64,000 nucleotides of DNA from contig CAZJPR010000003.1 of assembly GCA_964548265.1 (NCBI GenBank), positions 279 through 64,278 on the forward strand, read 5' to 3'. The notes under the pieces were generated by a model. The model made no database searches, was not told the origin of the DNA, and saw nothing but the letters and a program-made list of their open reading frames with translations. Position 1 is the first letter of the stretch; each line of letters opens with the position of its first letter. Source of the DNA: an uncultured Candidatus Saccharibacteria bacterium. GTDB lineage: Bacteria; Patescibacteriota; Minisyncoccia; Phycocordibacterales; Phycocordibacteraceae. Position numbers and translations under genes: made by a program. This document shows positions 2,821 through 48,415 of this stretch, piece after piece.

Positions 2821-2891
2821 GCGGGATTAGTTTAATGGTAGAACATCAGTTTTCCAAACTGAGAGCAGGAGTTCGATTCTCCTATCCCGCA
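2821..2891 (+). tRNA. tRNA-Gly (anticodon TCC)
   Basis: Acceptor GCGGGAT/ATCCCGC, anticodon stem TCAGT/ACTGA, loop TTTCCAA, T-arm AGGAG-TTCGATT-CTCCT. Confidence 0.8.
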
Positions 2892-2927
2892 CCCTTTAGT
2901 GCTAATCCGAGAGACTGAGGTGCTTAG
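2888..2927 (+). repeat. Left copy of ~38-bp imperfect direct repeat (att-like), starts in the tRNA-Gly 3' end
   Basis: GCACCCtTTAGTGCTAaTcCgAGAGACTGAGgTgCTTAG aligns with 4148-4188 at about 31 of 38 positions. Confidence 0.55.
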
Positions 2928-2972
2928 TTGGTAAGTTTCTAATCCCCAAAGAATCAAGTTAAAGTCTCTGTA

Positions 2973-3530
2973 ATGGTCAAAATACCCAAAGTAACCAGAG
3001 GGAAGCTACTTAAGGCTCTGAGGTCTTTTGAACAGCGACGAGAAAGGTTCCCCAATATAATTCTTCTACAGGAAGCATCTACTTTTGAGATTGACGACCC
3101 ATCTCATCCAGACTCTGACGTAAGCGAGGTAAAAGTGACGGTGAGGATAGAGTATCCAAACTACCAGTACTTGGTAGGAGAAATTTACGGAAGTTCAGAG
3201 CTGCGCGATGGCCCTTTTGGATTCAAGGCACCTGTTGGAATTATTCGTGATGAAGTTCTGCGGATGGCCAACGATGGTTTGGTAACGTTAGAGATGCAAA
3301 GTCCGATTTTTACAAGAATAGATAAAAGGAATGGCGAAGAAGTTCGCTACGACCCGGGCAAATTTTTTAGCAGGGAAGAAATCAAAGACTACAAAACAAA
3401 AATAGTGCTTACTACAAAAGGAAGGAGTGTGCTCGAATACTGGAAGTCTAGCTTCCCAGAAAATGCTGTTGCGTGGCTCTCGCTCTTCGTTTCTCTCCTA
3501 GCATTACTTACCTCGATTTTTATTAAGTAG
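2973..3530 (+). CDS. Hypothetical tail-anchored membrane protein (soluble N-domain, single C-terminal TM helix)
   Basis: 185-aa ORF, AT-rich codon usage, C-terminal hydrophobic segment AVAWLSLFVSLLALLTSIFI; no recognisable family. Confidence 0.5.
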   Translation: MVKIPKVTRGKLLKALRSFEQRRERFPNIILLQEASTFEIDDPSHPDSDVSEVKVTVRIEYPNYQYLVGEIYGSSELRDGPFGFKAPVGIIRDEVLRMANDGLVTLEMQSPIFTRIDKRNGEEVRYDPGKFFSREEIKDYKTKIVLTTKGRSVLEYWKSSFPENAVAWLSLFVSLLALLTSIFIK

Positions 3531-3600
3531 CCCAAATCGAGATGCCTCATTAAGAGGCTTTAACCCTCGCGCCTAGTGCAAATAAACTTATAATAAAAGT

Positions 3601-4062
3601 ATGTCGTCTGCGGTTAATCGAGCAAAAAGGCGTTTAGTAGACAGCATCATTGCTGGGCGACGTAATGCAGAAAACGCAAAATACGGAGCATTCATTGTTC
3701 AGACAAATGAAGTTCAACTCAAACTCGCTTTGGCTGTTTTGCAGCGATCGGGCTTGCCTGATAAGGACTATGTAGAGAAATTGGAGAGATCAGAACTTGG
3801 CCCACTCCTGAATCTATATAAGGCCTGCGTAAAGAGAGTATCGCCAGCAGCCGTAACGCTAGTTCGAGATCTTGGAACATATAAGGGCTACAGGAATCGT
3901 CTTGCACACAAAATGTTCGGAGGAAAAAAGCTGACTCCTGTCGAGTGCGAAGAAGCGATAAAACTGGGAGAGTCTATATTACGGCGTCTGAATCAGTTAG
4001 TGGGTATATATAAAAATGCGAAGCCGAGAGTGCAAACCGAGTGGGAAAAGGTAAAGACCTAG
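3601..4062 (+). CDS. HEPN-like protein (Rx4H motif), candidate RNase/toxin component
   Basis: 153-aa helical ORF with YRNRLAHKMF (R-x4-H HEPN signature, as in DUF4145/HepT/Abi-type HEPN domains). Confidence 0.45.
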   Translation: MSSAVNRAKRRLVDSIIAGRRNAENAKYGAFIVQTNEVQLKLALAVLQRSGLPDKDYVEKLERSELGPLLNLYKACVKRVSPAAVTLVRDLGTYKGYRNRLAHKMFGGKKLTPVECEEAIKLGESILRRLNQLVGIYKNAKPRVQTEWEKVKT

Positions 4063-4147
4063 ACCGAGATGCCTCGACTTCAATCCTAAAACCCCGCCAA
4101 AGAACCCTTGAAGTGCCCCACTCTACCTAGTTCGAGACCGAGGTGGG

Positions 4148-4188
4148 GCACCCACTAGTGCTAGTTCAAGAGACTGAGATACCTTAAG
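4148..4188 (+). repeat. Right copy of att-like direct repeat
   Basis: GCACCCacTAGTGCTAgTtCaAGAGACTGAGaTaCCTTAAG; preceded by 9-bp stem hairpin GTGCCCCAC...GTGGGGCAC enclosing a T-loop-like TTCGAGA. Confidence 0.5.
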
Positions 4189-4222
4189 CATTTTATGCTG
4201 CCCCTTCGGGTATACTCAATAC

Positions 4223-4639
4223 ATGTTAAGCACGCTGCAGTACGGTTTACTATATCTTGTTTCAGTTCCGGTGTTCTTTATCATTGACCTGTTTTGGTTA
4301 GGGATAGTTGCTCCTGGTTTTTATAAATCGCAGATAGGGCACCTACTCAGCCCAACGGTTAACTGGCCAGTAGCAATCGTGTTTTACCTCCTATTTTTAG
4401 TTGGACTTATTATTTTTGCCGTTGCGCCGGCAATCGAGGCTCGTGCGTGGACGCACGCACTATTGTATGGAGCACTGTTTGGTTTTTTTACGTACCTTAC
4501 CTATGACCTAACCAACTGGGCAACAATGAAGGAGTGGCCCGCATTAGTATCAATCGTCGACATTGTGTGGGGGACGGTGCTTTCTGGAGCAGTAGCAACC
4601 ATAACGTACTTACTCGCTACTACCTTTATCATTAAATAG
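4223..4639 (+). CDS. Small integral membrane protein (DUF2177-like, 4 TM)
   Basis: 138 aa, four hydrophobic helices; 4-bp gap to next gene. Confidence 0.55.
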   Translation: MLSTLQYGLLYLVSVPVFFIIDLFWLGIVAPGFYKSQIGHLLSPTVNWPVAIVFYLLFLVGLIIFAVAPAIEARAWTHALLYGALFGFFTYLTYDLTNWATMKEWPALVSIVDIVWGTVLSGAVATITYLLATTFIIK

Positions 4640-4641
4640 TC

Positions 4642-5424
4642 ATGACACCATTGGCTCTTTCATTGGTAGCGCTTCTTGCCTACATGAGTGCGTTATTTGT
4701 CATTAGTCTTATCGTCAAAAACAATGGCGTTGCAGACATCGGGTACGGAATTGCATTTATGATTGTCATTGCGGCAACCTTCGCCCAGACAACAATCACC
4801 GAGCCATTCATTGTGGTCTTAGCGCTCTTACCATTTATATGGGGTGCTCGACTCGCAACTCGAATCTATCGTAAGAACAAAGGTAAGCCAGAAGATTTCC
4901 GGTACAAAGCCTGGCGTGACGCGTGGGGAAAGAGTTTCATCGTACGGAGTTTCTTTCAGGTGTATATGCTACAAGGTCTGGTTGTCTTCATTGTGTGTCT
5001 CCCCGTGACGCTTGCGCTCCTCTACCCATCCGTGCAACCGAACTATCCTCTTGCGTACCTTGGTCTTGCTGTGTGGGTGGTAGGGTTCTTCTTCGAAGTG
5101 GTTGCAGACCATCAGTTAGATCAGTTTATTAACGACCCACAAAACAAAGGATCCATACTGATGCGCGGGTTATGGAAGTACTCACGACACCCTAACTATT
5201 TCGGAGAAAGCACAATGTGGGTAGGTATTGCACTTATCTCCTTGGCGCTTTCCTCGGTACCGCTTGTCGCTCTCGTAAGTCCGCTACTAATTACCTTCCT
5301 TCTTTTGAAAGTGTCAGGGGTACCGCTGCTTGAGAAAAAGTGGGAAGGAAATCTTGCGTGGGAGGTATACAAAAAAAGAACATCGGTGTTTTTCCCACTC
5401 CCACCACGGCTCCCTCATGAATAA
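4642..5424 (+). CDS. DUF1295 / steroid-5-alpha-reductase-like membrane protein
   Basis: Multi-TM ORF with C-terminal RHPNYFGE motif typical of the DUF1295/ICMT/5-alpha-reductase superfamily. Confidence 0.65.
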   Translation: MTPLALSLVALLAYMSALFVISLIVKNNGVADIGYGIAFMIVIAATFAQTTITEPFIVVLALLPFIWGARLATRIYRKNKGKPEDFRYKAWRDAWGKSFIVRSFFQVYMLQGLVVFIVCLPVTLALLYPSVQPNYPLAYLGLAVWVVGFFFEVVADHQLDQFINDPQNKGSILMRGLWKYSRHPNYFGESTMWVGIALISLALSSVPLVALVSPLLITFLLLKVSGVPLLEKKWEGNLAWEVYKKRTSVFFPLPPRLPHE

Positions 5425-6046
5425 ATACATGTATACACTCCTAGCCATTGGAGCCTTACTCATTGCCTGGACGGCAATAAGTTACCTTGTTGAACATTCA
5501 GTTAAGACACCGGCTTATTCGGTTATTGAAAAACGGCACGGATACGAAGTGCGTGTATACCAACCATATATAACTGCTCAGGTGAAGGTCGGCGGGACCT
5601 ATGACGAGGCCTTGAATGAAGGTTTCAGGATTCTGGCTGATTACATTTTTGGAAACAACACAAAACAGACAAGCATCGCAATGACCGCTCCGGTTATCGA
5701 GGGCGAATCTGAGAAGATGGCAATGACTGCTCCAGTGATTGAAAGCTCAAAAGAAGGGAGCCGTACCGTCTCTTTCGTGATGCCGTTTGAATACACGCTT
5801 GAGACACTACCGCAGCCCAACAATCCTAGGATAGAGATTGTCCCGCAAGAAGCACGAAAAGTTGCCGTGCTGAGATTTTCTTGGTTCAGGGACAGTGAGC
5901 GGGTTGCTACGAAAAAGCAGGAGCTCCTCTCGCTGCTTGAGAAAGACTCAGTAGTGAGTAAGGGGGAGCCAGAATATGCGGGGTACAACGCGCCCTTCAC
6001 TGCACCGTGGCTTAACCGGAACGAGATATTGGTTGAAATTAACTAA
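5417..6046 (+). CDS. SOUL heme-binding-protein family protein (secreted/anchored)
   Basis: ATG at 5417 overlaps upstream stop (ATGAATAA); N-terminal hydrophobic signal; similarity by eye to SOUL/HBP fold proteins. Confidence 0.55.
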   Translation: MNKYMYTLLAIGALLIAWTAISYLVEHSVKTPAYSVIEKRHGYEVRVYQPYITAQVKVGGTYDEALNEGFRILADYIFGNNTKQTSIAMTAPVIEGESEKMAMTAPVIESSKEGSRTVSFVMPFEYTLETLPQPNNPRIEIVPQEARKVAVLRFSWFRDSERVATKKQELLSLLEKDSVVSKGEPEYAGYNAPFTAPWLNRNEILVEIN

Positions 6047-6156
6047 CGTCCCGTGGTTCTAACGCGCAGAGACAGTTCGATGTAAGAGGCCATGCCCCCA
6101 TTTTCTCCCCTCCCTGCAGGAAACCTTCATCATTTCTGCATGGTATCTTTGTTGTA

Positions 6157-7608
6157 GTGTTCACAGGGCGTGCTTTATCCGAACCGATTAATACGATTAT
6201 CGATATGCAAAGTAATGTAATGAGAAAGATAGGCGCGGTACTTACCGCCGTCGCGCTCGCGATTTCCGCGTACGCAGCGCTCGGACCGGCCTATACGGCG
6301 CACGCCGCTACGTGTACCTTCAGCCGCGACCTGTACGTCGGGACGACTGGTGAGGACGTGCGCTGCCTCCAGCAATATCTGAATGGTAGTGGCTACAAGA
6401 TTGCCTCCACTGGCCCTGGCGCCCCAGGCGCTGAGACCACTATCTACGGCTCCCTGACGGGAGTTGCCGTTGCTAAGTGGCAGGCTGCAAACGGCGTTAC
6501 CTCAAACGGAAACTTCGGCCCAATGTCCCGCGCCAAGTTCAGCGCGCTCATGGGTGGAGGCAGTACAACCATCCCTCCAATAACTGGCAGCGACCAGCTT
6601 CGTGCAAAGGTTGCCATTCTTGAGGCTGTTGCAGCCTACCAGGATGCCGTTGATGAGGACGGGGACGACGGCCCTCTTGAGGATGCCGCTCAGGACCTTC
6701 TCAATGCGTTTACTCAGTACCTCAACGGAAGTTACGTTCAGGCAATCGCTAGCGCGAACGCTTCAACGGACAGCTCCGATGAGGCAATGGGGAACAGTGA
6801 CGACGACAGCGACAGCAATGACGCTGACGAGAACGACGCAGAAGATGCGATTGCTGACGCAGAGGAAGCTATCGATGACGCTAATGACGCCATTGATGAT
6901 TCCGACGCCTCAGGTAGCGACATCGACGACGCAGAGGGACTCGTAGCTGACGCCGAGGACTTCCTCGACGACGCGAACGCAGCTCTTGATGACGAGGACT
7001 TCGATGAGGCAGTTGATGCTGCAAACGACGCGATTGACGCTGCCAACGAGGCAGAAGACATCGCTAACGGCGACAGCAGCAGCAATGACGGTGACGAAAG
7101 CGATGCTGAGGATGCAATTGCTGATGCGGAAAACGCTATCGATGACGCACAGACAGCTATTGATGATTCCGACGCTTCAGGTAGCGACATCAATGACGCC
7201 GAAGACCTCCTTGCTGATGCTGAGGACTTCCTCGATGAGGCAAATGATGCCTTTGACGATGAAGACTGGGATGCAGCGATGGATTCGGCAGATGACGCGA
7301 TTGACGCTGCTGACGAGGCTCGCGAAATCGCACTTGGAACCAGCGACAGCAATGACGCTGACGAGAACGATGCGGAGGATGCACTCGATGAGGCAGACGA
7401 TGCCATCAGCGAAGCACGCGAGGATCTTGCCGATTCTGACATCTCGTCATCTGACTACAGTGACGCAGATGAACTACTTGATGACGCGGATGACCTTCTC
7501 GAGGAGGCAGAAGACGCCTTCGATGACAATGACTGGGATGAAGTGATTGATCTCACCGACGAAATCATGGATCTCGTTGATGAGGCTCAGGACATCATTG
7601 ACGGATAG
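6157..7608 (+). CDS. Secreted peptidoglycan-binding-domain protein with long poly-acidic (Asp/Glu/Ala) tandem-repeat tail
   Basis: Probable true start ATG 6220 (MRKIGAVLTAVALA signal peptide); PG_binding_1-like segment (TGEDVRCLQQYLNGSGY); then three ~90-aa acidic repeats. Confidence 0.7.
   Translation: MFTGRALSEPINTIIDMQSNVMRKIGAVLTAVALAISAYAALGPAYTAHAATCTFSRDLYVGTTGEDVRCLQQYLNGSGYKIASTGPGAPGAETTIYGSLTGVAVAKWQAANGVTSNGNFGPMSRAKFSALMGGGSTTIPPITGSDQLRAKVAILEAVAAYQDAVDEDGDDGPLEDAAQDLLNAFTQYLNGSYVQAIASANASTDSSDEAMGNSDDDSDSNDADENDAEDAIADAEEAIDDANDAIDDSDASGSDIDDAEGLVADAEDFLDDANAALDDEDFDEAVDAANDAIDAANEAEDIANGDSSSNDGDESDAEDAIADAENAIDDAQTAIDDSDASGSDINDAEDLLADAEDFLDEANDAFDDEDWDAAMDSADDAIDAADEAREIALGTSDSNDADENDAEDALDEADDAISEAREDLADSDISSSDYSDADELLDDADDLLEEAEDAFDDNDWDEVIDLTDEIMDLVDEAQDIIDG
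6800..7605 (+). repeat. Three tandem ~270-bp coding repeats (about 75-80% identical)
   Basis: Repeating blocks gacagcaatgacgctgacgagaacgac...gattccgacgcctcaggtagcgacatc...gaggacttcctcgatga seen three times in phase. Confidence 0.7.
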
Positions 7609-7632
7609 TCGAACTGAGTGTGGCAGACAACA

Positions 7633-7661
7633 ACCGCCCCTGCGAGGGCGGTTTTTGTTTT
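7633..7661 (+). terminator. Rho-independent terminator
   Basis: ACCGCCC-ctgcga-GGGCGGT followed by TTTTTGTTTT. Confidence 0.7.
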
Positions 7662-7699
7662 CCGTTGCACTTCATGTGGAGAAGCGTAGTCTTGAAGAA

Positions 7700-8848
7700 A
7701 TGGAGCCCCTCGCCAACCGCATACGGCCGACCTCTCTCGACCAATTTGTCGGCCAGGAACATCTAGTGGGCAAGGACAAGCCGCTTCGAGTCGCTATTGA
7801 GAAGAAGCACCGCTTCTCCTTCATTCTCTGGGGGCCTCCTGGAACTGGAAAGACAACGATTGCCCGCATCTATGCAAAAGCACTTGATGCCGAGCTCTTT
7901 GAACTCTCCGCAGTCTCGGCAGGGAAAGACGATATACGTAAGATTGTTGGAGAAACGTCCCGCGCAGGAAAACTTGCACTTGAGAGACCTAAGGTATTGT
8001 TTCTCGACGAAATCCATCGCTTCAATAAAAGCCAGCAGGATTTCCTCTTGCCCTATGTTGAGAGTGGAGAACTCACCCTCATTGGTGCCACCACCGAGAA
8101 TCCTTCCTTCGAAGTGATTCCTGCGCTCCTTTCTCGCTCCCGAGTGTTTGTACTTGAGCCGCTCTCCGAAGAAGCGCTCAAGGCAATCGTGAAGCGCTCG
8201 AAGGTGAAGGTTCCCAAGGATGCCTTCGACTGGTTACTGGGTTATGCCAACGGGGATGCCCGTAAGGCACTCACCATGCTTGAAGGAGCAGAGACATTGT
8301 ATGGAGAAGTGTCTGTTGAGAACCTCAACAAAGCACTTGAGTCTCCGCACCTTCGCTACGACAAGAAGGGAGATGAGCACTACGACACTATCAGCGCTTT
8401 CATAAAGAGCATGCGAGCAAGCCAACCTGACGCCGCCATGTACTACCTCGCACGTATGGTTGAAGCGGGAGAGGACCCACTCTTCATCGCGCGAAGAATG
8501 GTTATCTTCGCTTCAGAAGATGTGGGACTCGCGCAGCCGACCGCACTTGTAGTTGCGAACTCTGTCTTCCGCGCCTGTGAGGTCATTGGGTATCCGGAGT
8601 GTGCCATCAATCTCGCACACGGAGTGGCGTATCTCGCGAACGCTGCAAAAGACCGCTCAGCCTACGATGCACTTAGGCTCGCTCAAGAAGACACAAAGAA
8701 GTTCGGCAACCTCCCGGTTCCCAAACATATCAAGAACGCCCACACAAAACTGATGAAAGAACTTGGGTACGGCAAGGGATACAGGAAGTACGACACGGAA
8801 AGCTACCTGCCTGAGAAACTGAAGGGGAAGAAATACTTCAATACCTAG
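7700..8848 (+). CDS. rarA: Replication-associated recombination protein A (AAA+ ATPase)
   Basis: [11 protein letters not shown] Walker A, MgsA/RarA C-terminal region; ATG at 7700 chosen ([19 protein letters not shown]). Confidence 0.85.
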
Positions 8849-8953
8849 AAAGATCTCGCACGAGCGGGACTTTTGGTAGTTTTACTTTACTTGACGAATT
8901 CTATAGATAAACCATGATGCGTCTGTACTACTTATCTCATCACGTACCATCTC

Positions 8954-9676
8954 ATGCCCGAAGGAACATTTGACGCAGGCCTCCCACCACAACAAGGATC
9001 AGTAGATCCGTTTTTAGGGGGCACCGTCCCCGAACACGAGCGATCAATCGTAAACGTTGAGGGCCCAGTGCAGACAGAGGTTGCCGCCCACGTGGAACAA
9101 GTGGTAGGCGCGGCCCGTAACGGTATCGCACTTGATCTTGCATCAGTTGATTTCTCAACGGCCTTTAGGGCTCCGGACGCAAGCCACGTCGAGAACGAGC
9201 CTACGGTCAGTGCCCGCCTTGAGGTCCGCGGACTCCCCGAGCGCTTTTCCCAAGCGTTCATTATCGCAAGCACAGTAGATGGTGAGCAGGCACGCATTAT
9301 CTCTCAGAGCTGCGCCGTTCTTAACGAACGCCTTACGCTTTGTGGCGAACCTGTCTTCCGTGTTGGTGCTGACAATAACGGTGAAGTGAGCGGCGCGGTG
9401 TATACCCTCGCACAACTCCTTGAAGCGAACGCGGTAGTGGGCATAAACTGGAACACCCAGGGTGAGCCTGCGGGCTTTGTAGAACTTGGCCGCACCTTCC
9501 AGATTGCAGGCACGGATGTCTCTGTTGAAATGGCTGCTGGCTCCTTTGACTCTGATGAGTACGGACGCTTGTCACTTAAGTGGGCGAGAGACAATGGTAT
9601 TGATGTCAGCATGCAGGTCTTCATCCCTGAGAACGGAGAGGCACAGCCCTCTATCACTGTTTCCCGACGCTTCTAG
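8954..9676 (+). CDS. Hypothetical protein
   Basis: 240-aa ORF; no recognised motifs; antisense ORFs look compositionally spurious. Confidence 0.4.
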   Translation: MPEGTFDAGLPPQQGSVDPFLGGTVPEHERSIVNVEGPVQTEVAAHVEQVVGAARNGIALDLASVDFSTAFRAPDASHVENEPTVSARLEVRGLPERFSQAFIIASTVDGEQARIISQSCAVLNERLTLCGEPVFRVGADNNGEVSGAVYTLAQLLEANAVVGINWNTQGEPAGFVELGRTFQIAGTDVSVEMAAGSFDSDEYGRLSLKWARDNGIDVSMQVFIPENGEAQPSITVSRRF

Positions 9677-9691
9677 GGTGTAGCGGGTGCG

Positions 9692-9722
9692 AAAAAAGCC
9701 CCGGGAGACCGGGGCTTTTTCT
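9692..9722. terminator. Bidirectional rho-independent terminator between convergent genes
   Basis: AAAAAA-GCCCCGG-gaga-CCGGGGC-TTTTT. Confidence 0.75.
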
Positions 9723-9734
9723 GTAAGAAGACTC

Positions 9735-10007
9735 TTACTTAACTGCGTCCTTAAGCGCCTTTGCGGGGCGGAACTTAGGGGTGCGAGTAGCTGCAATGCG
9801 GATGGTCTCGCCAGTGCGAGGGTTCCTTCCAGTGCGTGCTGGGCGTGCCTTCGCCACGAAGATGCCGAGTCCTGCAATAGATACCTCGTCCCCGCTCTTT
9901 ACGCCCTTAATGATGCAGTCGATGAGGGTCTCAACGGCGCGCTCCGCGTCAGCCTTGGTGCCGCCGAGAGTGTCCTGAACTTTTGAAACGATGTCTGCCT
10001 TGTTCAT
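9735..10007 (-). CDS. hup: HU/IHF-family DNA-binding protein
   Basis: MNKADIVSKV..., conserved GFGxF arm, RNPRTGE; 90 aa from ATG at 10007. Confidence 0.85.
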   Translation of the reverse strand: MNKADIVSKVQDTLGGTKADAERAVETLIDCIIKGVKSGDEVSIAGLGIFVAKARPARTGRNPRTGETIRIAATRTPKFRPAKALKDAVK

Positions 10008-10107
10008 GATGCTCTTGGTTATTCCTAATCCCGCGGCCACCGATTAGGCAGGGGGTATGTAGAAAGTATAAGAAATACGCCACGGTACGCAATAGGGCTA
10101 TCTAACA

Positions 10108-10138
10108 ACAAAAAATCCCTCACTAGAGGGATTTTTAT
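10108..10138 (-). terminator. Rho-independent terminator downstream of rny (minus strand)
   Basis: ATCCCTC-acta-GAGGGAT flanked by A-run/T-run. Confidence 0.65.
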
Positions 10139-10156
10139 AATCTGTGTCAAGAGTGC

Positions 10157-11686
10157 TTAGCGCGCAAACTCAACGACGCGGTTCTCGCGAATGATGTTTA
10201 CCTTGATTTCGCCCGGGTACTTGAGCTCACTCTGCACGCGCTCTGCAATATCACGCGCAAGGCGGTGCATGGCGAGGTCAGAGACCTTTCCGGGGTTCAC
10301 AAAGATGCGGATTTCACGCCCAGCCTGCACTGCATAGCTCTTCTCAACACCAGGGAAGGTGCTGGCGATGCGCTCGAGGTCGGTAAGACGCTCAAGATAG
10401 CGCTCTACCGTGTCGCGACGAGCTCCTGGGCGACCGCCTGAGACTGCGTCAGCTACCTGCACGATGATGGACTCTGGTGTCTCGTACGGATACTCTTCGT
10501 GATGCGACTGCATTGCCTGAATGACCTTCTTATCGACACCGAACTTCTCAAGCAAGCGGCGACCAATTTCCACATGCGTGCCCTGCACTTCGTGGTCCAC
10601 TGCCTTCCCGATGTCATGCAGAAGCGCGCCTGCGCGTGCCACATCAGCATCTGCGCCAAGCTCCGTCGCAAGCATGCCAGCCAAGTGCGCCATCTCAATT
10701 GAGTGCTGGAGTACATTCTGACCGTAGCTTGTGCGGAAGTTAAGACGCCCAAGAAGGGTAGTGAGTCGGGGGTCGAGACCAAGCACACCGACCTCGTACG
10801 CCGCCTGTTCGCCCTTCTGCTTCACAATCTCCGCCACTTCTTGCTTAGCCTTCTCTACCATTTCCTCAATCTTTGCAGGCTGTATGCGACCGTCTTCGAT
10901 AAGGCGCTCAAGTGCAATCTTTGCGATATGGCGGCGAAGTGGGTCAAAGGAGGAAAGCGTAATCTTGTCCGGTGCATCGTCGATAATGACGTCCACCCCC
11001 GTAGCGCGCTCAAACGCCTTGATGTTGCGGCCTTCCTTGCCGATGACCTTTCCTTTTATCTCCTCGGAGGCAATCGGTACCGAAAGCGTCATGACTTCAG
11101 CATTCACCGCGTTCCCCATACGGTGGATGGCGGTGAGAAGCATCGTACGTGCCTTCTCCTCAAGCTGCTCGCGCCCATGTGCCTCAAGCTTCTGCAGGCG
11201 GGAGAGGAAGGATTCCTGACTCGTCTCCTCAAGATCTTTCATGAGCATCTCGCGTGCCTGCTTCTCCGAGAGGTGAGAGAGCTGGAGCAACTCTGAGCGA
11301 CGCTCCTTAAGAAGCGCATCTGCTTCGCGCTTGGTATTTACTGCTTCGTTCTCGCGCGCTCGTACCTTGTCCTCGTCATCAGAGAGTCCGCGTTCTCGTT
11401 CGTCGAGGAATTCCTCGCGCTTTCCAAGACGCTCTTCCTTCTCTGCGAGCTTCTCGTCGCGCTCTTCAAGTGGGGCAAGGCGCTCCTCTTCGACTTCACG
11501 TGCTCGGTCCTCCGCCTCTTCAAGCACGCGTGCAGCGCGCTCACGCGCCTCGATCATCTTCTGCTTAATCTCCAACTCCAAAGACCCCCGCTGGGAGAGG
11601 GTGATGAGCCACCGAAGGACATAGCCAAGCGCAATGCCGGCAAGCCCTGAGAGGGCGAGAAGACCAAGAACAAGTTTGATGGACAT
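10157..11686 (-). CDS. rny: Ribonuclease Y (N-terminal TM, KH and HD domains)
   Basis: N-terminal TM helix, coiled-coil, KH (GKEGRNIK), HD motif (LLHDIGK). Confidence 0.9.
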   Translation of the reverse strand: MSIKLVLGLLALSGLAGIALGYVLRWLITLSQRGSLELEIKQKMIEARERAARVLEEAEDRAREVEEERLAPLEERDEKLAEKEERLGKREEFLDERERGLSDDEDKVRARENEAVNTKREADALLKERRSELLQLSHLSEKQAREMLMKDLEETSQESFLSRLQKLEAHGREQLEEKARTMLLTAIHRMGNAVNAEVMTLSVPIASEEIKGKVIGKEGRNIKAFERATGVDVIIDDAPDKITLSSFDPLRRHIAKIALERLIEDGRIQPAKIEEMVEKAKQEVAEIVKQKGEQAAYEVGVLGLDPRLTTLLGRLNFRTSYGQNVLQHSIEMAHLAGMLATELGADADVARAGALLHDIGKAVDHEVQGTHVEIGRRLLEKFGVDKKVIQAMQSHHEEYPYETPESIIVQVADAVSGGRPGARRDTVERYLERLTDLERIASTFPGVEKSYAVQAGREIRIFVNPGKVSDLAMHRLARDIAERVQSELKYPGEIKVNIIRENRVVEFAR

Positions 11687-11856
11687 AGGCGGGAGTTAGC
11701 CGCCTTCCGGTACCCTACCAACTACACAGAACTGCGCACGTTTCAGAGGTTTGAGTCATGTTCGGGATCGGAAGGCAGAGGATCAGCGTGGATAAGCGTT
11801 CAGTCGTTACTGGGTTCGTTATTGTGCCACAAATCAGCCCCAGGGGACAGGTTGGC

Positions 11857-12195
11857 CTAATCGACGTCGTCAGAGGTAAGAGAAGTGCGGGTGCCTATCT
11901 TCTCGGCCAGGCGTGGGTCAACGGACGCCTTGAAAATCTTCATGGCGTCCCGGTCATTGTAGAAAACGCCGCCAATGACAAAACCGAGCTGACTCTCAAA
12001 GACTGCACGCTTGAACGCGTCTCCACTGATATCGAGTTCTGACGCCATTGCCCGGTATGCCGCGTCGTGATACGGACCGATGTAGTGCTTCCCTTCGTGT
12101 AGTATTGCTGGCGTGTAATTCTTCTTGGTCGGCTCACGAGGTCCGAGAGGCAAGGGAGGAGTGCTCTCTGGGCTCGATCGTTCTCCCTCGGACAT
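11857..12195 (-). CDS. Hypothetical protein (immediately downstream of clpP, same strand)
   Basis: 112 aa; 4-bp spacing to clpP stop; competes with the + ORF 11758-12042; strand context favours the minus one. Confidence 0.35.
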   Translation of the reverse strand: MSEGERSSPESTPPLPLGPREPTKKNYTPAILHEGKHYIGPYHDAAYRAMASELDISGDAFKRAVFESQLGFVIGGVFYNDRDAMKIFKASVDPRLAEKIGTRTSLTSDDVD

Positions 12196-12199
12196 ATGA

Positions 12200-12802
12200 T
12201 TACTTGCTCTTGAACACCGTATCCACGAGCCCGTATTTCTTGGCTTCGTCTGCGGTCATGAAGTAGTCGCGTTCAACATCGCGCTCAATCTTTGCGAGTT
12301 CCTGTCCGGTCGACTTCGCAAGAATCTTGTTGAGACGGTCGCGAGTAGCGAGGATGTGCTTGGCCGTAATCTCAATGTCGGTGGCCTGACCCTGCGCGCC
12401 TCCCCATGGCTGGTGAATCATCACTTCAGAGTTTGGAAGCGCGTAGCGCTTGCCCTTCTCACCAGCAGCGAGGATGACGGCGGCGGCACTTGCTGCCATG
12501 CCCACACACACGGTGGAGACTGCTGGCTTCACATGGTTCATCGTGTCGAGAATAGCGAGACCTGCCGTTACCGAGCCACCTGGGGAGTTGATGTAGAAAG
12601 AGATGTCCTTCTTCGGGTCCTCAGACTCAAGGAAGAGCAACTGTGCGATGACGAGGTTTGCGGTGTCGTCATCAATACCACCACCGAGGAAGATGATGCG
12701 GTCCTTGAGAAGACGTGAATAGATATCGTACGCACGTTCACCAAACGATGACTTCTCGACGACCATCGGGATAAGCATTGAAGAGCGAGGTTTCATGTCC
12801 AT
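12200..12802 (-). CDS. clpP: ATP-dependent Clp protease proteolytic subunit
   Basis: GMAASAAA (Ser) and MIHQP (His) catalytic motifs; typical ~200 aa. Confidence 0.9.
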
Positions 12803-12822
12803 AGTCTGATGATAGTACCAAA

Positions 12823-12856
12823 GAAAAAGCCCCGGGCAAAACCCGGGGCTTTTTGC
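12823..12856. terminator. Bidirectional rho-independent terminator
   Basis: AAAAA-GCCCCGGG-caaaa-CCCGGGGC-TTTTT. Confidence 0.7.
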
Positions 12857-12865
12857 ACGAACGTG

Positions 12866-13156
12866 TTACTCCTCAAATGAAGCGTCGAGCTCGGTAAACG
12901 CCTTATCAAGCTCTGCATCAAACTCTTCAGAGGACTGCGCCTCGAGGTCTGCCTCAATTGCCGCAGGGTCCGTGGACTCGTCCTGAGTCTCAAGCGACTC
13001 AACAACCGCTTGCTCATTAAGTGGTGCATTCATGCGGTTCTGCCACGTGTAGAAAGCCCCAGCGACGATAAGCGCAACAATAAGCACGAGCACAACGATG
13101 GCTCCTGTAGAGGAAGCAGGGCGGATGGTCTGTTCGGTGGTCTGTGTTGGTTCCAT
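12866..13156 (-). CDS. Small single-TM membrane protein with acidic C-terminal tail
   Basis: TM helix AIVVLVLIVALIVAGAFYTWQNR; paralogous to 13977-14165 (GAFYTWGQR). Confidence 0.5.
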   Translation of the reverse strand: MEPTQTTEQTIRPASSTGAIVVLVLIVALIVAGAFYTWQNRMNAPLNEQAVVESLETQDESTDPAAIEADLEAQSSEEFDAELDKAFTELDASFEE

Positions 13157-13166
13157 GGTAGTTCTA

Positions 13167-13916
13167 TTATTCGCTTACTGCTTCTTCCTCTACGTCCCGG
13201 TTCGGGAGAGCCTGCGCGGCTTCTCGCAGCGCCTCGTGTGCTGCACGGAGCGCTTCCTTGGCAGCGTTACCTAGCTCCTTCGCTTCCCGCAGAGCTTCGC
13301 GAGGAGTCTCAGACGCAAGTGCCGCTTCAATGGCAGCCTTCACTGCATCCACTGCGTCAGCGGCGTTTTCGATAGCTGCTTCAGCTTCATCAAGTTCCGC
13401 CTGCGCCGCGCTCGCGTCGATACCTTCACCCTCGAGGAAGTCGATTCTTCCCTGGATGCGATCAGCAATGCCTGCAAGACGAGTGAGCATGGCATCAAGC
13501 AGGCGGGCGGCGTATCCTGCGCGCTCAATAACACGCTCCTTTATATGCTCAGCTATCTCAGTCTTCCGGAGCGCAGTCGAGGATGCAAACTCTGTGCGGC
13601 GTTCCATGATGCGGTCCTTGAGTGCTTCACGCCTCGCTTCAGTAGTTGATGCAAACTCGGCGCGTCGCTCTTTACCCGCCTCCTTCCAATCATCGACTGC
13701 CTCCTTCCGTCCCTCGCGCGCTTCAAGAAGATGCTCCTTTGCTTCTTCTCCTGCTGCCTTCCAGCGTTCGGTGTTCTCTGGACGCATGTCCTTCCCGTCA
13801 GGGAAGAAGAGGGTAGGCAAAGGACGCTCAGGACGAGGTGGCGGTGCGTTCTCCTCGGCCGAAACCGGAAGAGCGAAGGTCATGAGAAGCGCAATAAGAA
13901 CGGCGAGCTGTTTCAT
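13167..13916 (-). CDS. Secreted, highly charged alpha-helical protein (signal peptide)
   Basis: MKQLAVLIALLMTFALPVSA signal; the rest is E/K/R/A-rich; the antisense S/A/R-rich ORF was rejected. Confidence 0.5.
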   Translation of the reverse strand: MKQLAVLIALLMTFALPVSAEENAPPPRPERPLPTLFFPDGKDMRPENTERWKAAGEEAKEHLLEAREGRKEAVDDWKEAGKERRAEFASTTEARREALKDRIMERRTEFASSTALRKTEIAEHIKERVIERAGYAARLLDAMLTRLAGIADRIQGRIDFLEGEGIDASAAQAELDEAEAAIENAADAVDAVKAAIEAALASETPREALREAKELGNAAKEALRAAHEALREAAQALPNRDVEEEAVSE

Positions 13917-13976
13917 GCAGCGTATGCGTAAACTGGTATACCGAAAGTATACCCCACCCTCCTTGTCTTCCGTGTA

Positions 13977-14165
13977 CTACTCAGGGAGTTCGGTAGGAGG
14001 GAGTTCGCGGTCCTCAGCAACGCGCTGGCCCCAGGTGTAGAAAGCCCCAATGACGATAATGACCACAATAATAAGGAGTGTGATGAGGGTGCCCATCGAC
14101 GACTTTTCTTTAGACGTAGCTGGTGTGGCTACAGGGTTCGAGAGTTCGGTCGTCGGAGTATCCAT
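13977..14165 (-). CDS. Small single-TM membrane protein (paralog of 12866-13156)
   Basis: ATG at 14165 (MDTPTTELS...); TM LITLLIIVVIIVIGAFYTWGQR. Confidence 0.45.
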   Translation of the reverse strand: MDTPTTELSNPVATPATSKEKSSMGTLITLLIIVVIIVIGAFYTWGQRVAEDRELPPTELPE

Positions 14166-14214
14166 AGGGTATGAAACGATTATATAACCCCAGACGTTGA
14201 AGGAACAATGAAGA

Positions 14215-14715
14215 TTACCGGTTTTCAGGCAAGATAAAGCGTTCATTGCACTTTACAGGCACAAACCGGACCCCGAGATTTCCGGCAAACTCTCGATCAG
14301 AGTCCCGGTCTCCAAACATAAGCGATGAGGAGAGATCGATGTCAGCGGTAAGAAAAGGCGCGAGACCTCCAATTTTTGGCTTACGACACTCACATCCATC
14401 GTCGGGTCCATGCGGGCACGCCATCACAAAGGCAAAGCGTACGCCTTCCTTTTCTAGTTCTCCGATCATGCGTTCCATCACCGCATCAAAGATTCCTTGC
14501 GGGTGCCGCGACGTCCCAAGATACGTTTGGTTAGTGACGAGCACCAACTCATACCCTTCACCTGTAAGTGTCTTTAGTCCTTCAATTGCTCCTTCCATGA
14601 AACGAACCTCGTCCGCGCTTTTGAGCGGAAAAGTTTCGCGCGGGTCAATGCCTTCCGGACGCTCTGGTTCCAAAATGAGGGTTCCGTCTCTATCGACAAA
14701 GGCGACTTTACGCAT
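14215..14715 (-). CDS. gmhB: HAD-IIIA phosphatase (D,D-heptose-1,7-bisphosphate/histidinol-phosphate phosphatase-like)
   Basis: FVDRDGTL motif I and the second Asp-containing motif; ATG at 14715 overlaps upstream stop (ATGCGTAA). Confidence 0.65.
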   Translation of the reverse strand: MRKVAFVDRDGTLILEPERPEGIDPRETFPLKSADEVRFMEGAIEGLKTLTGEGYELVLVTNQTYLGTSRHPQGIFDAVMERMIGELEKEGVRFAFVMACPHGPDDGCECRKPKIGGLAPFLTADIDLSSSLMFGDRDSDREFAGNLGVRFVPVKCNERFILPENR

Positions 14716-15283
14716 TCTTAAAGTTTCCTGAGAGGAACCTAAGCAACACAAGTGCACTACGCTCTTCCTTAATAGAGCCATCAAGACACATACGTTTCAC
14801 TAGCTCCCGGTCCATAAACTCAACACTTATGTCTTCTGCTTCTTCAACGGTGCGCTCAGCGTCCACACTCGCGCGCTCAAGCGACGCTGCCTCTCGGGCT
14901 ACAAAATAGAAGAGGTCCCATTCCACGGTAGTGCCGCAGACTGATTTGTAGAGGAACGAAGCGTCCTTCACCTCAACATACGCTTCTTCGCGTGCTTCCT
15001 TTATCGCCGCTTTCTTAGCGGCCTCCACCATGTCGGATCCACTGGTGAGTGCATCCGTGTACTCAGTGAGCGTATCAAACACCTTTCCTCCTGGAAGGCG
15101 ATAGTCATAGCCGCCCTGCTCGTGGCGTTCTTCCTTCGTGATGAGGATAGAATCTCCACGGGCAACAATAAGACGTACACCCGGAGAGCGCCGCGCTTTC
15201 TCGAACACCAATTGCTTTCCTGCCTGCGTAACGTCGAACTCCACTACCTCAACAATCTTTCCTTTGTACTTGCTCGTCTCCAT
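14708..15283 (-). CDS. NUDIX hydrolase
   Basis: Nudix box-like GGKV...AAIKEAREEAYV. Confidence 0.65.
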   Translation of the reverse strand: METSKYKGKIVEVVEFDVTQAGKQLVFEKARRSPGVRLIVARGDSILITKEERHEQGGYDYRLPGGKVFDTLTEYTDALTSGSDMVEAAKKAAIKEAREEAYVEVKDASFLYKSVCGTTVEWDLFYFVAREAASLERASVDAERTVEEAEDISVEFMDRELVKRMCLDGSIKEERSALVLLRFLSGNFKNA

Positions 15284-15825
15284 TACTTAATCTCTGCTTT
15301 CTTCTCCTCGTAGAGTTTGCAGGCCTTCTCGAACGCAGCCTGTGCCTCAGCCTTCCCCTTAAAGCCGTTGATGACTACCTGGTGCTGCCCCTTCTCTCCC
15401 TTGAGTTCCTTGTACGTCTCGAAGAAGTGCTGAATCTCCTTAAGTGTGTGCTTGTTGATATCTTTGAGGTCCTGCACATCATCCCAACGCTTATCGTGGA
15501 CGGGCACGCCGATGACTTTGTAATCGTTCTCACCGCAATCCATCATCTCCATGAGTGCAACCGGGCGAACGTTCACGAGAATGCCTGAGGGGACTGGGAA
15601 GGTAGCGAGCACCACGACATCAAGAGCGTCTCCATCGTCCCAGTAGGTCTGGGGGACAAAGCCGTATTCACATGGGTAAGCGGCCGCAGAGTAGTTAGCG
15701 CGGTCGAGCTTAATCATGCCGGTTGCCTTATCAATCTCGTACTTGTTTGGGGAACCCTTTGGGACCTCGATGATAACGTTAATCTCATCCTTGGTGCCTG
15801 CGGGAATGTCGTGCCAGAGGTTCAT
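15283..15825 (-). CDS. ppa: Inorganic pyrophosphatase (family I)
   Basis: Family-I PPase fold and conserved acidic residues (EIPKGS..KYE.D, DGDP.D); 180 aa. Confidence 0.9.
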   Translation of the reverse strand: MNLWHDIPAGTKDEINVIIEVPKGSPNKYEIDKATGMIKLDRANYSAAAYPCEYGFVPQTYWDDGDALDVVVLATFPVPSGILVNVRPVALMEMMDCGENDYKVIGVPVHDKRWDDVQDLKDINKHTLKEIQHFFETYKELKGEKGQHQVVINGFKGKAEAQAAFEKACKLYEEKKAEIK

Positions 15826-15854
15826 TGGGCGAACTATACTACAACGCCCGCTAA

Positions 15855-15886
15855 CAAAAAAGCGCCCCGGTCGGGGCGCTTTTTCT
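15855..15886. terminator. Bidirectional rho-independent terminator downstream of nusA
   Basis: AAAAAA-GCGCCCCG-gtc-GGGGCGC-TTTTT. Confidence 0.75.
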
Positions 15887-15899
15887 CAACTGCGTTTCC

Positions 15900-17252
15900 T
15901 TACGCCTCGTCGCGAGATTCTTTCGTGTCGACAACCGACTCGTTCTCGCCGTTAACCGCAAGCTCTTCCTCGGCAGGGAGAACCGTGTCTGCTTCTTTCC
16001 CCTCAACGACAATTTCTGCCGGAGCTTCGGTTGGTGCAAGTCCAGCCTCAACTGCAGGCTCTTCAGTCTTCTCAGAGATTGAGACACCTTCGCCGTCGCT
16101 CTCTGCAACGTTCTCGCCGCCGACCGACTTGATGTCGATGTTCCAACCCGTGAGCTTTGCTGCGAGACGTACGTTTTGTCCGCCGCGACCAATAGCAAGA
16201 GACTGCTGATCCTCAGAGACCGTCACTGTTGCACGGTGATCGTCCTCAGAGAGCTCAACATCAAGCACAGAAGCGGGGGAAAGTGCTTCCTTGATGAAGG
16301 ACTTCTGGTCGTCGCTCCACTCAATGATGTCGATACGCTCGCCACCGAGCTCGCTCATAACAGTCGAGACACGCACACCACGCTGACCAACGAGAGAACC
16401 AACTGGGTCCACATGTGGATCAGTCGAAGCAATGGAAATCTTCGTGCGACTTCCAGGCTCACGTGCAATTGCCTTCACTTCAATCGCGCCACTTGCGAGC
16501 TCCGGTGCCTCAAGCTCAAAGAGCTTCACCAAGAACTTCGGGTGCGAGCGGGAAAGGCGGAGGTAGACGCCACGGAATCCTTCATCCACTGCGTGGAGGT
16601 ACGCACGGATGCGCTCTCCTGGGCGATAGCGCTCGCCAGGAATCTGCTCCTCGTACGGGATGAGTCCCGTTGCGCGACCGAGGTCGACGTAGAGTGCGCC
16701 GCGCTCGACCCTCTGCACGATACCGGAAACAATCTCGCCCTTCTTGTGACCAAACTCGTCGAGGATAGAGAGCTTCTCTGCCTCGCGAATCTTCTGAATC
16801 ACCACCTGCTTAGCCGTCTGGGCTGCAATGCGACCGAAGTCGTCCTGCGGCTCAAGAGGGAAGATGAGCTCTTCAGCAAGCTCAACACCCTTCTTCACGA
16901 GACGCGCAGTATCAAGGAGAATATGCTTCTCCTCGTCGTAGCGAGGGAGCTCGCCCTCGGCAAGTCCTTCGTTCTCGCTCTGCCAACCACCACGGTGCGG
17001 CTGCTCGACTTCCTCTTCGCCTTCCTCCGGGAAGCGGACCAAAGTGTCGTCGACAACCGTCTTTACCTGTTCAAAAGAAACTGTGCCCGTATTCATATCA
17101 AGCTTTGCACGGACAACCTGTCCGCGCTTGCCGTATTCCTTCTTGTACGCAGTTGCCATCGCGGCCTCGATAGCCTCGATCATGGTCTCCTTCGCTATGC
17201 CCCTATTCTCGAATTCAGTGAGAACGGTTTGTATTGTTTTTAGATCCAACAT
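15900..17252 (-). CDS. nusA: Transcription termination/antitermination factor NusA
   Basis: NusA N-domain, S1 and two KH domains; acidic C-terminal tail; ATG at 17252 (MLDLKTIQ...); track ORF starts at an upstream TTG. Confidence 0.85.
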   Translation of the reverse strand: MLDLKTIQTVLTEFENRGIAKETMIEAIEAAMATAYKKEYGKRGQVVRAKLDMNTGTVSFEQVKTVVDDTLVRFPEEGEEEVEQPHRGGWQSENEGLAEGELPRYDEEKHILLDTARLVKKGVELAEELIFPLEPQDDFGRIAAQTAKQVVIQKIREAEKLSILDEFGHKKGEIVSGIVQRVERGALYVDLGRATGLIPYEEQIPGERYRPGERIRAYLHAVDEGFRGVYLRLSRSHPKFLVKLFELEAPELASGAIEVKAIAREPGSRTKISIASTDPHVDPVGSLVGQRGVRVSTVMSELGGERIDIIEWSDDQKSFIKEALSPASVLDVELSEDDHRATVTVSEDQQSLAIGRGGQNVRLAAKLTGWNIDIKSVGGENVAESDGEGVSISEKTEEPAVEAGLAPTEAPAEIVVEGKEADTVLPAEEELAVNGENESVVDTKESRDEA

Positions 17253-48408: not shown

Positions 48409-48415
48409 GAACCGC

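Follow-up and report, generated by a model that had tools for sequence, protein, structure and literature searches.

At the tRNA-Gly(TCC) gene of the window (the whole 64,000-nucleotide (64-kb) stretch of an uncultured Candidatus Saccharibacteria bacterium analysed here), a low-GC islet with two genes lies directly 3' of the tRNA. The question raised by this locus is whether the islet is the relic of a single integrated element or part of something larger, and which enzyme would have brought it there. A preliminary description had read positions 2821-4190 as one old, decayed integrative element, which had entered the tRNA 3' end and retained a two-gene cargo module, without an integrase, between degenerate direct repeats resembling attachment (att) sites. 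According to the present analysis, the islet was acquired horizontally and entered at the 3' end of tRNA-Gly(TCC), and the region 2893-6100 very probably consists of tandem insertions, namely islet B (2893-4151) and island A (4152-6100). We consider it likely that such units are non-autonomous cassettes stacked at the 3' boundary of the tRNA, and that a large serine recombinase (LSR) acting in trans probably placed them there.

Insertions behind tRNA-Gly(TCC) and their boundaries

The insert begins at 2893, directly after the box GCAC (2889-2892) of tRNA-Gly(TCC), and all junctions sit directly 3' of this box. In the closest empty sites, L042 (78-80% identity in both flanks) and L041 (84%), tRNA-Gly is followed by the homologue of 6101 onwards; positions 858-2259 of L042 match window 6101-7490 at 80%, and L041 has the same trailer. 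Since tRNA-Gly runs straight to this homologue in both loci, all of 2894-6100 is insertion. In L019, tRNA-Gly is followed by 77 nucleotides (nt) and the genes DUF2177-DUF1295-SOUL (81% identity to 4202-6045), and the two islet genes, the open reading frames (ORFs) ORF1 and ORF2, are absent together with 2894-4150; L018 is the empty site corresponding to L019. The insertion at a tRNA 3' end proposed earlier was thus confirmed, as was the expectation of syntenic relatives in which tRNA-Gly leads directly to the DUF2177 gene (L019) or to the acidic-repeat gene further downstream (L042/L041). The exact 3' half of tRNA-Gly(TCC) is common to 34 GTDB species, all represented by metagenome-assembled genomes (MAGs) of Patescibacteria (Kaiserbacteria/Paceibacterota-like), and an insert or scar was found behind tRNA-Gly in at least 20 of these 34 species.

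Strain variation was followed in contigs of other samples which encode proteins identical to those of the window. L002 and L004 share 99% identity with the window, beginning at exactly 4148 and extending rightward, and differ in their upstream DNA. In L002, a 4-kb cassette (DUF1905, helix-turn-helix (HTH) protein, thioredoxin, DsbD-MsrA-MsrB) extends from the tRNA-Gly end to another pseudo-T arm, i.e., a sequence resembling the T arm of a tRNA; L004 shows only the last ~430 nt of a cassette of this type, comprising the end of the MsrB gene and the same arm. A cassette of the L002 type was found independently after the tRNA in the MAG L021 (GTDB). In L001, identity to the window is 100% from 2890 rightward, with a third kind of pseudo-T arm upstream instead of the tRNA. 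The identical DUF2177 protein was found in other contexts in L002-L004. Breakpoints in independent contigs fall on the GCAC box to the base, and each pseudo-T arm moves with the DNA to its left, each left end with the DNA to its right. Because arms and left ends travel separately, the repeat of the preliminary description represents the similar left ends of two adjacent elements. Contigs of 99-100% identity with different cassettes at the same breakpoints indicate that the site was rearranged recently, which does not agree well with an old, decayed element.

The repeat itself is present much as described. Positions 2889-2919 and 4148-4178 are identical at 26 of 31 positions without gaps, and the similarity reaches ~2927/4188 with one indel, close to the 31 of 38 given before. 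The degenerate 23-mer TAGTGCTARTYCRAGAGACTGAG occurs at two sites in 64 kb, which are the two repeat copies (0 expected, 100 shuffles); being confined to these places, the repeat is not a common intergenic motif. What could not be upheld is the assignment of the copies as attL and attR of a single element: islet B has the left copy as its left end, and the right copy forms the left end of island A; in L002 and L004, the latter end is retained without change, with another cassette upstream. No long direct repeat copied from the tRNA (att core of about 15 nt or more) flanks the islet. Within the coding sequence of ORF2, a 12-mer GCTAGTTCGAGA (3858-3869) matches the pseudo-T-loop box of the right-end module (4126-4137) and that of the left end of island A (4160-4171) with at most one mismatch, probably by chance.

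Three junctions of one design were recognized (Table 1), each with a T-loop-like box GTTCGA, 12-13 nt and then (G)C(A/C)C. The first is the true tRNA end; the others are termed J2 and J3. At J2, the spacing from AGTTCGA (4129-4135) to GCAC (4148-4151) is 19 nt, identical to the spacing in the true tRNA (2870-2876 to 2889-2892). Junction 1 and J2 are followed by a similar left end of ~35 nt, CC(T/A)(T/C)TAGTGCTA-N7-AGAGACTGAG. J3 is followed by TTTTCTCCCCTCC..., which runs into the acidic-repeat peptidoglycan-binding gene.

The composition of the locus agrees in part with what had been claimed. ORF1 and ORF2 have a GC content of 0.43 and 0.45 and a GC content at third codon positions (GC3) of 0.43 and 0.42, compared to window means of 0.547 (GC) and 0.604 (GC3), and their GC3 values are the two lowest of 64 window ORFs (z about -3.1 and -3.2). 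High GC is limited to the left flank; rightward, low GC (0.44-0.50) persists to ~6100, well beyond the right boundary assigned in the preliminary description. Elsewhere in the window, two adjoining genes at 47308-49429 have GC3 values of 0.50 and 0.46 (local GC ~0.51 versus 0.55) and may be an acquired segment.

Table 1. Features of the tRNA-Gly(TCC) locus, with positions counted in the window
Feature	Position	Strand	Remarks
tRNA-Gly(TCC), integration target	2821..2893	+	ARAGORN 2821-2893; Rfam tRNA 2821-2891, 73 bits
Junction 1, true tRNA end	2870-2892		
Islet B left end (left repeat copy)	2893..2940	+	CCTTTAGTGCTAATCCGAGAGACTGAGGTGCTTAGTTGGTAAG...
ORF1, cassette 1 cargo	2973..3530	+	185 amino acids; no known family; C-terminal hydrophobic helix
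Truncated start of right-end module after ORF1 stop	3531..3558	+	CGAGATGCCTC + small hairpin GCCTC/GAGGC
ORF2, cassette 2 cargo	3601..4062	+	153 amino acids; predicted HEPN fold, R98-x4-H103; conserved TATAAT upstream, 3588-3593
Islet B right-end module	4060..4151	+	opens at cargo stop TAGACCGAGATGCCTC, ends GGTGGGGCAC
Junction J2	4129-4151		
Island A left end (right repeat copy)	4152..4190	+	CCACTAGTGCTAGTTCAAGAGACTGAGATACCTTAAG
DUF2177 membrane protein, island A cargo	4223..4639	+	Pfam E 4e-45; GC3 0.47
DUF1295/steroid-reductase-like membrane protein, island A cargo	4642..5424	+	Pfam E 1e-64
SOUL haem-binding-family protein, island A cargo	5429..6046	+	Pfam E 5e-47; gene call in L002
Island A right end, second type	6050..6100	+	GGTTCTAACGCGCAGAGACAGTTCGATGTAAGAGGCCATGCCCCCA; pseudo T-loop AGTTCGA 6074-6080
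Junction J3, third pseudo-tRNA junction	6074-6100		CAGTTCGATGTAAGAGGCCATGCCCCCA
Original host sequence 3' of tRNA-Gly	6101..6160	+	TTTTCTCCCCTCC...; into acidic-repeat gene 6157-7608

Cassette units and their cargo

Judged by its repeats and by its relatives, islet B appears to be two independent single-gene cassettes joined by a small deletion. After the ORF1 stop, CGAGATGCCTC and a small hairpin (3538-3558) are fused directly to the ORF2 leader, which in L009 comes after that cassette's left end. A second repeat of the window, an 18-mer, is found at 3531-3548 and 4058-4075; this repeat and the fusion of ORF1 to ORF2 would both result from a ~100-nt deletion across a cassette junction. In cassettes containing ORF2 only, similarity to the window begins at 3549-3559. 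ORF2 homologues (83-86% nucleotide identity) stand alone between tRNA-Gly and the same right-end module in L008/L009, and one is found behind a differing tRNA-Gly(TCC) sequence in L007. An ORF1 homologue (78% identity) stands alone behind tRNA-Gly in L048, and another (60%) lies behind tRNA-Arg(GCG) in L044-L047, where an exact 18-nt tRNA 3' repeat flanks it. Each gene thus occurs alone behind a tRNA elsewhere (L008/L009, L048, L044), and the two-gene cargo module proposed for the islet had to be given up. The single-gene ORF1-type insert at 3563-4340 of L044 (also in L045-L047) shows a classical att duplication CGATTCCTACCGAGGGCA, unlike the window junctions.

Left ends of the islet-B kind follow tRNA-Gly also in L012, L020, L033, L037, L048 and others. 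At the other side, modules homologous to the islet B right end close the cassettes in L009, L012, L020 and L049 (72-86% identity over 58 nt). In the window, L009 and L049, the module has (TAG)ACCGAGATGCCTC as its opening at the stop codon of the cargo, and L012 differs by one mismatch (CGAGATGCTTC); likewise, CGAGATGCCTC follows the cargo stop codon in L009, L049 and, with the same mismatch, in L012. In the window, the module holds a perfect 9-bp inverted repeat (GTGCCCCAC, 4113-4121; GTGGGGCAC, 4143-4151), which forms a hairpin enclosing the pseudo T-loop AGTTCGA at 4129-4135. It was also observed that unrelated cargo ORFs (ORF2, a TrmB-family gene and a gene for a 107-amino-acid membrane protein) stop at or within a few bases of TAGACCGAGATGCCTC, and that the module seems to supply the cargo stop codon (window 4060-4075 and 3528-3548; L009, L012, L049), as attC often does in integrons.

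The preliminary description had recognized a tRNA 3' half in front of the right repeat copy. This resemblance is real with respect to AGTTCGA, GCAC and their spacing, but the sequence is derived from the element and is not a displaced piece of the host tRNA. The 12 nt between AGTTCGA and GCAC are wholly different in tRNA-Gly and in the pseudo-arm, in-register sharing being limited to AGTTCGA and GCAC(CC), and the right-end module (4094-4151) has no similarity to tRNA-Gly beyond chance (z 0.2, shuffles). The pseudo-tRNA arm of the window received neither an ARAGORN call nor an Rfam tRNA match. As its stems do not pair as a T arm either, it was rejected as a tRNA or tRNA-like RNA.

Island A ends with an arm of a second type. 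Arms like it close the cassettes of L002/L004 and L037 (GGGCGACCGAGACGGTTCGATTATGAGAGACCGCAC), and L032 has a more degenerate arm of this type without GTTCGA. The start of the SOUL gene is uncertain, since the mechanical ORF begins at 5330. Beyond island A, the acidic-repeat gene (6157-7608) encodes a secreted protein of 483 amino acids, in which long and strongly acidic tandem repeats rich in D/E/A come after a PG_binding_1 domain. Its position beside tRNA-Gly and RarA is conserved in L018, L020, L023, L024 and L042.

Neither ORF1 nor ORF2 belongs to a housekeeping family, as had been stated before, and PADLOC, NCBIfam and PHROGs searches yielded no informative match for either. The orphan ORF1 possesses a C-terminal membrane helix; it has just three homologues besides itself, and its structure model is unusable (predicted local distance difference test (pLDDT) score 46). 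The family of ORF2 is small, as 82 representatives were counted among 1.84 billion proteins. It has a four-helix up-down HEPN fold and, in the helix-3/4 region, the motif R98-N-R-L-A-H103 (Rx4H, within the Rx4-6H motif of HEPN proteins), in which R98 is invariant and H103 is at least 90% conserved (55 members). ORF2 itself matches a curated HEPN model weakly (E 0.12, 12.7 bits, cutoff 28.4) and has no PADLOC match; 7 of 55 relatives match Pfam HEPN_RiboL-PSP (best E 5.4e-5) and one matches AbiU2. As a prediction, ORF2 is probably an RNase-type defence or toxin protein. A RuvA-like match of ORF2 (E 1e-3, 7-sequence profile) faded to E 0.25 with a 55-sequence profile and was rejected. The sole distant ORF2 homologue with a long contig (46%, L005) is surrounded by a mobile/defence-type region (2985-16109), which contains a ParB-N6-methylase, a small-terminase-like (terS-like) HTH protein, a 611-amino-acid orphan, RNase_T, PD-(D/E)XK, a mutator-type transposase, an MmeI-type restriction enzyme and an LSR sharing 56% identity with the enzyme of L022 (see below).

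A second kind of insert was observed at the same tRNA. These are gene-less mini-elements of 150-200 nt, each closed by 16-24 nt that repeat the tRNA 3' end exactly; they were found in L011, L015, L027, L028, L034, L038, L040 and L043 (first ~200 nt), in L007 (469-654) and, in short form, in L010 and L036. About 20 nt past the tRNA, they contain the tRNA 3' end once more in inverted orientation, interrupted by a GC-rich hairpin (TGCGGGAT-hairpin-GGAGAATCGAA); in L007, this inverted copy follows the local, differing tRNA-Gly sequence. Two mini-elements stand in tandem in L011 and in L028. No Rfam family matched.

Recombinases at the site and explanations for the movement of cassettes

The absence of an integrase from the islet, noted earlier, was confirmed: neither ORF1 and ORF2 nor the DUF2177, DUF1295 and SOUL proteins contain a recombinase domain (Pfam alone for the latter three). 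Relatives carry recombinases at the same site. In L022, a 441-amino-acid LSR (Resolvase + Recombinase + Zn_ribbon_recom) is encoded convergently and ends ~100 nt from the same tRNA-Gly, and LSR islands adjoin this tRNA in L022, L049/L050 and L052. The LSR of L049/L050 (85% identical) lies in a 4.96-kb island after tRNA-Gly, with a DUF6886 protein, the LSR and three unknown ORFs. In L049, this island ends with ...CAGTTCAGTACAGTGAGGGGGCAC and is followed by the canonical cassette left end ACTCTAGTGCTAGTTCAAGTGACCGAGG of a second unit, a 1.9-kb integrase-less two-gene cassette whose right-end module is 73% identical to window 4059-4151; LSR island and cassette reside together at one site. The array is succeeded by host DNA with an IS200-like gene and RarA. 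The IS200/IS605-type Y1 transposase gene (L049 4689-5120, L050 115-546) is placed directly outside the last cassette junction, which indicates that the hotspot also gathers unrelated mobile DNA.

The LSR family has more than 8000 homologues at E ≤ 1e-60, and 82 LSR loci were examined (80 metagenomic loci and L049/L050). A tRNA was found ≤ 3 kb downstream of the LSR gene in 38 of the 82 loci, convergent in 38 of 38, often at a distance of about 100-200 nt, and within 92-380 nt in 14; the targets include tRNAs for Gly, Glu, Arg, Ile, Leu, Asp, Met and Ser. LSR genes with at least 68% identity to the L022 LSR adjoin nine different tRNA species, and eight of these (9 loci) show a (G/T)CAC junction and the conserved left end A-x-x-R-GTCAG, the exception being Arg(CCG) in L063. 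Within the family (loci L051-L130, L049), the closest LSR clade targets Gly, Glu, Arg, Ile and Leu tRNAs, and a more distant clade (57-63% identity) mostly targets tRNA-Ser with a different left end (CCGCCA/AGACATTTTATTATCGG, the slash marking the junction).

Exact or long tRNA 3' repeats were not found at the far ends of LSR islands, as is expected for serine recombinases; hence, there is no independent boundary marker. Far ends were located in three LSR islands, i.e., L049, L052 (10 kb, metabolic cargo) and L053 (tRNA-Arg TCT), and these share the module CGCCAAA..CCCTT..stem..GTTCA..GAGGGGGCAC. Window 4094-4151 is 67-69% identical to the three right ends (z 5.5-6.6, shuffles). The invariant CAC is the sole constant at the junctions, and attL and attR lack long direct repeats, as in the short core of serine-type recombination.

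Given these observations, we lean towards an LSR as the enzyme which moves the cassettes. Each element would consist of a left end (of the CTAGTGCTA-N7-AGAGACTGAGG type) and a right end which copies only the T-loop box and the terminal GCAC. In a circular element, the joined ends would form attP, in which the P arm would imitate those parts of the tRNA end read by the enzyme; an LSR provided in trans from an autonomous island of the same family would recombine attP with the tRNA end, and strand exchange in or beside the invariant CAC would leave no long direct repeat. On inspection, the reconstructed attP showed no convincing half-to-half dyad symmetry. For the window, island A with its DUF2177, DUF1295 and SOUL genes would have been inserted first, and the ORF2 and ORF1 cassettes would then have entered between the tRNA and island A, newcomers pushing older units away from the tRNA. 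The ~100-nt deletion would finally have fused the ORF1 and ORF2 cassettes into islet B.

Several points weigh against an LSR. The left ends of cassettes and LSR islands are about 41% identical, with GAGACTG(C)GAGG as the single shared block, a likeness too weak to serve as evidence; the cognate enzyme could be of a different LSR subfamily or another recombinase. The right end of island A, being of the second type, scores z 0.1 against the LSR-island module. No LSR was found by tblastn within the 64-kb window, and circular or excised forms were not seen. Viral contigs, phages and plasmids yielded no att patterns: scans of viral contigs for exact patterns (tRNA 3' end; degenerate left-end motif) and for LSR relatives gave nothing, nor did BLASTN of the islet against phages and plasmids, so there is no evidence of phage- or plasmid-borne cassettes. 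Some of the supporting contigs are short Logan assemblies, though the MAG L021 shows the L002-type cassette as well. Finally, a GCAC-N6-GTGC dyad at most junctions (2889-2904, 4148-4163; L012, L020, L033, L032, L049) would also suit the core of a tyrosine recombinase.

The same tandem cassettes could accordingly be moved by a tyrosine recombinase, either of an undiscovered master element or a host Xer-like enzyme, using inverted GCAC...GTGC half-sites with a 6-nt spacer. Tyrosine integrases classically act on tRNA 3' ends, exact 16-24-nt tRNA 3' repeats of the kind typical of such enzymes are carried by further inserts at this tRNA and at related ones (L007, L044, L011 etc.), and a Xer-like gene is present in relatives (L049). 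However, the N6 overlap varies by junction (CCTTTA, CCACTA, ACTCTA, CATCTA), and naive sites (L042) as well as LSR-island junctions have no GTGC arm. Furthermore, more than 10 cassettes contained no tyrosine integrase, and none was seen adjacent to them in the sampled regions, whereas the LSR is the only recombinase inside a junction-bounded element at this site. We therefore regard a tyrosine recombinase as unlikely.

Considerably less probable is an exchange of contents by homologous recombination, without site-specific recombination of the cassettes themselves, via conserved flanks (the tRNA to the left, conserved junction modules or DUF2177 to the right), the modules being kept as RNA elements such as terminators or tRNA-like processing signals in transcripts reading through from the tRNA. 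All cargo genes are indeed co-oriented with tRNA-Gly, the modules open right at cargo stop codons, and the module hairpin is kept through C/U changes opposite G in seven sequences. Compensatory covariation, however, was seen in 0 of 14 pairs, with one-sided changes only, and no Rfam family matched. Naive sites take up the insert exactly at the tRNA end without a shared right flank (L042 versus the window), the same module closes LSR islands at a different tRNA (L053, tRNA-Arg), and the shared stretches measure only 30-90 nt.

The single ancient element at 2821-4190, with its integrase lost, the repeats as degenerate attL/attR and the pseudo-half as displaced tRNA 3' end, is scarcely tenable. 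It would explain a repeat behind the tRNA and again behind a tRNA-like 3' half, an interior without integrase and the AT-rich composition. The right repeat copy, however, stays with island A when islet B is replaced (L002, L004) and thus belongs to the neighbouring element. The pseudo-arm is conserved with cassettes and LSR islands of other species and is unrelated to the acceptor and T stems of tRNA-Gly, low GC and the third junction extend to 6100, and contigs of 100% and 99% identity differ in their cassettes, which does not fit an old fixed relic. This explanation is largely refuted by L002, L004, L001 and L042. As a practical warning, a repeat looking like attL/attR can be the similar ends of two neighbouring elements. 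A chance resemblance of native genes with accidental repeats, for which nothing speaks beyond the short repeat length, is already refuted by 0 of 100 shuffles with two matches, the empty sites in relatives, the extreme GC3 and breakpoints falling on the repeat to the base.

Significance and comparison with known systems

Genomes of the candidate phyla radiation (CPR) are tiny and, in most descriptions, have few mobile elements; in the present case, insertions accumulate at a single tRNA-Gly, and strains that are nearly identical are distinguished solely by the small cassette they carry. The cargo ranges from a predicted HEPN protein to methionine-sulfoxide-reductase and thioredoxin genes and membrane proteins. 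If LSRs move the cassettes, this would explain a flexible gene pool kept by reduced genomes. It would also provide a serine integrase family with natural, predictable tRNA-end targets of different specificity, which could serve genome engineering. A full-text search, with incomplete coverage of the literature, returned no published description of tRNA-end-targeting serine recombinases or of such cassettes in CPR.

Cis-mobilizable elements (CIMEs) are integrase-less derivatives of the integrative and conjugative elements (ICEs) of Streptococcus. As in these, att-bounded DNA without recombination genes lies beside a tRNA 3' end, can stand in tandem with an autonomous element (L049) and would grow by accretion, in which newcomers use the regenerated target and push older units outward. 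In contrast to CIMEs, the present units are very small, with 0.5-2 kb and one to three genes, and are associated with an LSR instead of a tyrosine integrase; sharing between the flanks is limited to the T-loop box and GCAC and does not comprise an exact tRNA repeat of 15-50 nt, and the host is a Kaiserbacteria-like CPR bacterium with a genome of roughly 1 Mb.

Tycheposons of Prochlorococcus are cargo elements at tRNA genes of a streamlined genome, in which successive integrations push earlier ones into the island; degenerate remnants and strain-level variability occur, and 27 of 937 have an LSR (bioRxiv 10.1101/2020.12.28.424599). They are flanked by partial tRNA copies, mostly have tyrosine recombinases, and many contain replication genes (bioRxiv 10.1101/2020.12.28.424599). 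Exact partial tRNA copies, replication genes and an integrase are all missing from the window cassettes.

LSR (phage-type serine integrase) elements for comparison are phiC31, Bxb1 and SCCmec/Ccr (PMC12884075). As with these, relatives at the site encode Resolvase+Recombinase+Zn-ribbon proteins, the recombinase gene is positioned at the island end beside att, and attL and attR have hardly any sequence in common, which is what a 2-bp crossover predicts. The CPR family differs from classical serine integrases, as it sits at the 3' boundary of many tRNA genes and the window elements are without the enzyme. Classical serine integrases mostly target protein-coding genes.

Integrons are similar in that arrays of small, co-oriented and mostly single-gene units without their own recombinase are formed by insertion at one fixed end, and that each unit ends in a structured module of ~60-90 nt which opens at the stop codon. 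It may tentatively be proposed that CPR bacteria possess an integron-like capture system, in which a tRNA-end LSR family would mobilise single-gene cassettes in trans by means of ~90-nt modules, which would imitate no more than the T-loop box and terminal GCAC of a tRNA, and thereby build strain-specific stacks of defence and stress genes in minimal genomes. In contrast to integrons, neither IntI nor attI was found, the gene upstream of the tRNA encoding a trypsin-like protease, and the junctions (...GGTGGGGCAC/CC...) have neither the R''/L''-L'/R' layout nor the GTTRRRY core of attC sites, which are marked by RYYYAAC...GTTRRRY cores and extrahelical bases. The GTTCGAG found here is not GTTRRRY and lies in the loop and off the crossover; the insertion point is a tRNA end, and ORF2 has its own TATAAT box. 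The resemblance to integrons is functional only.

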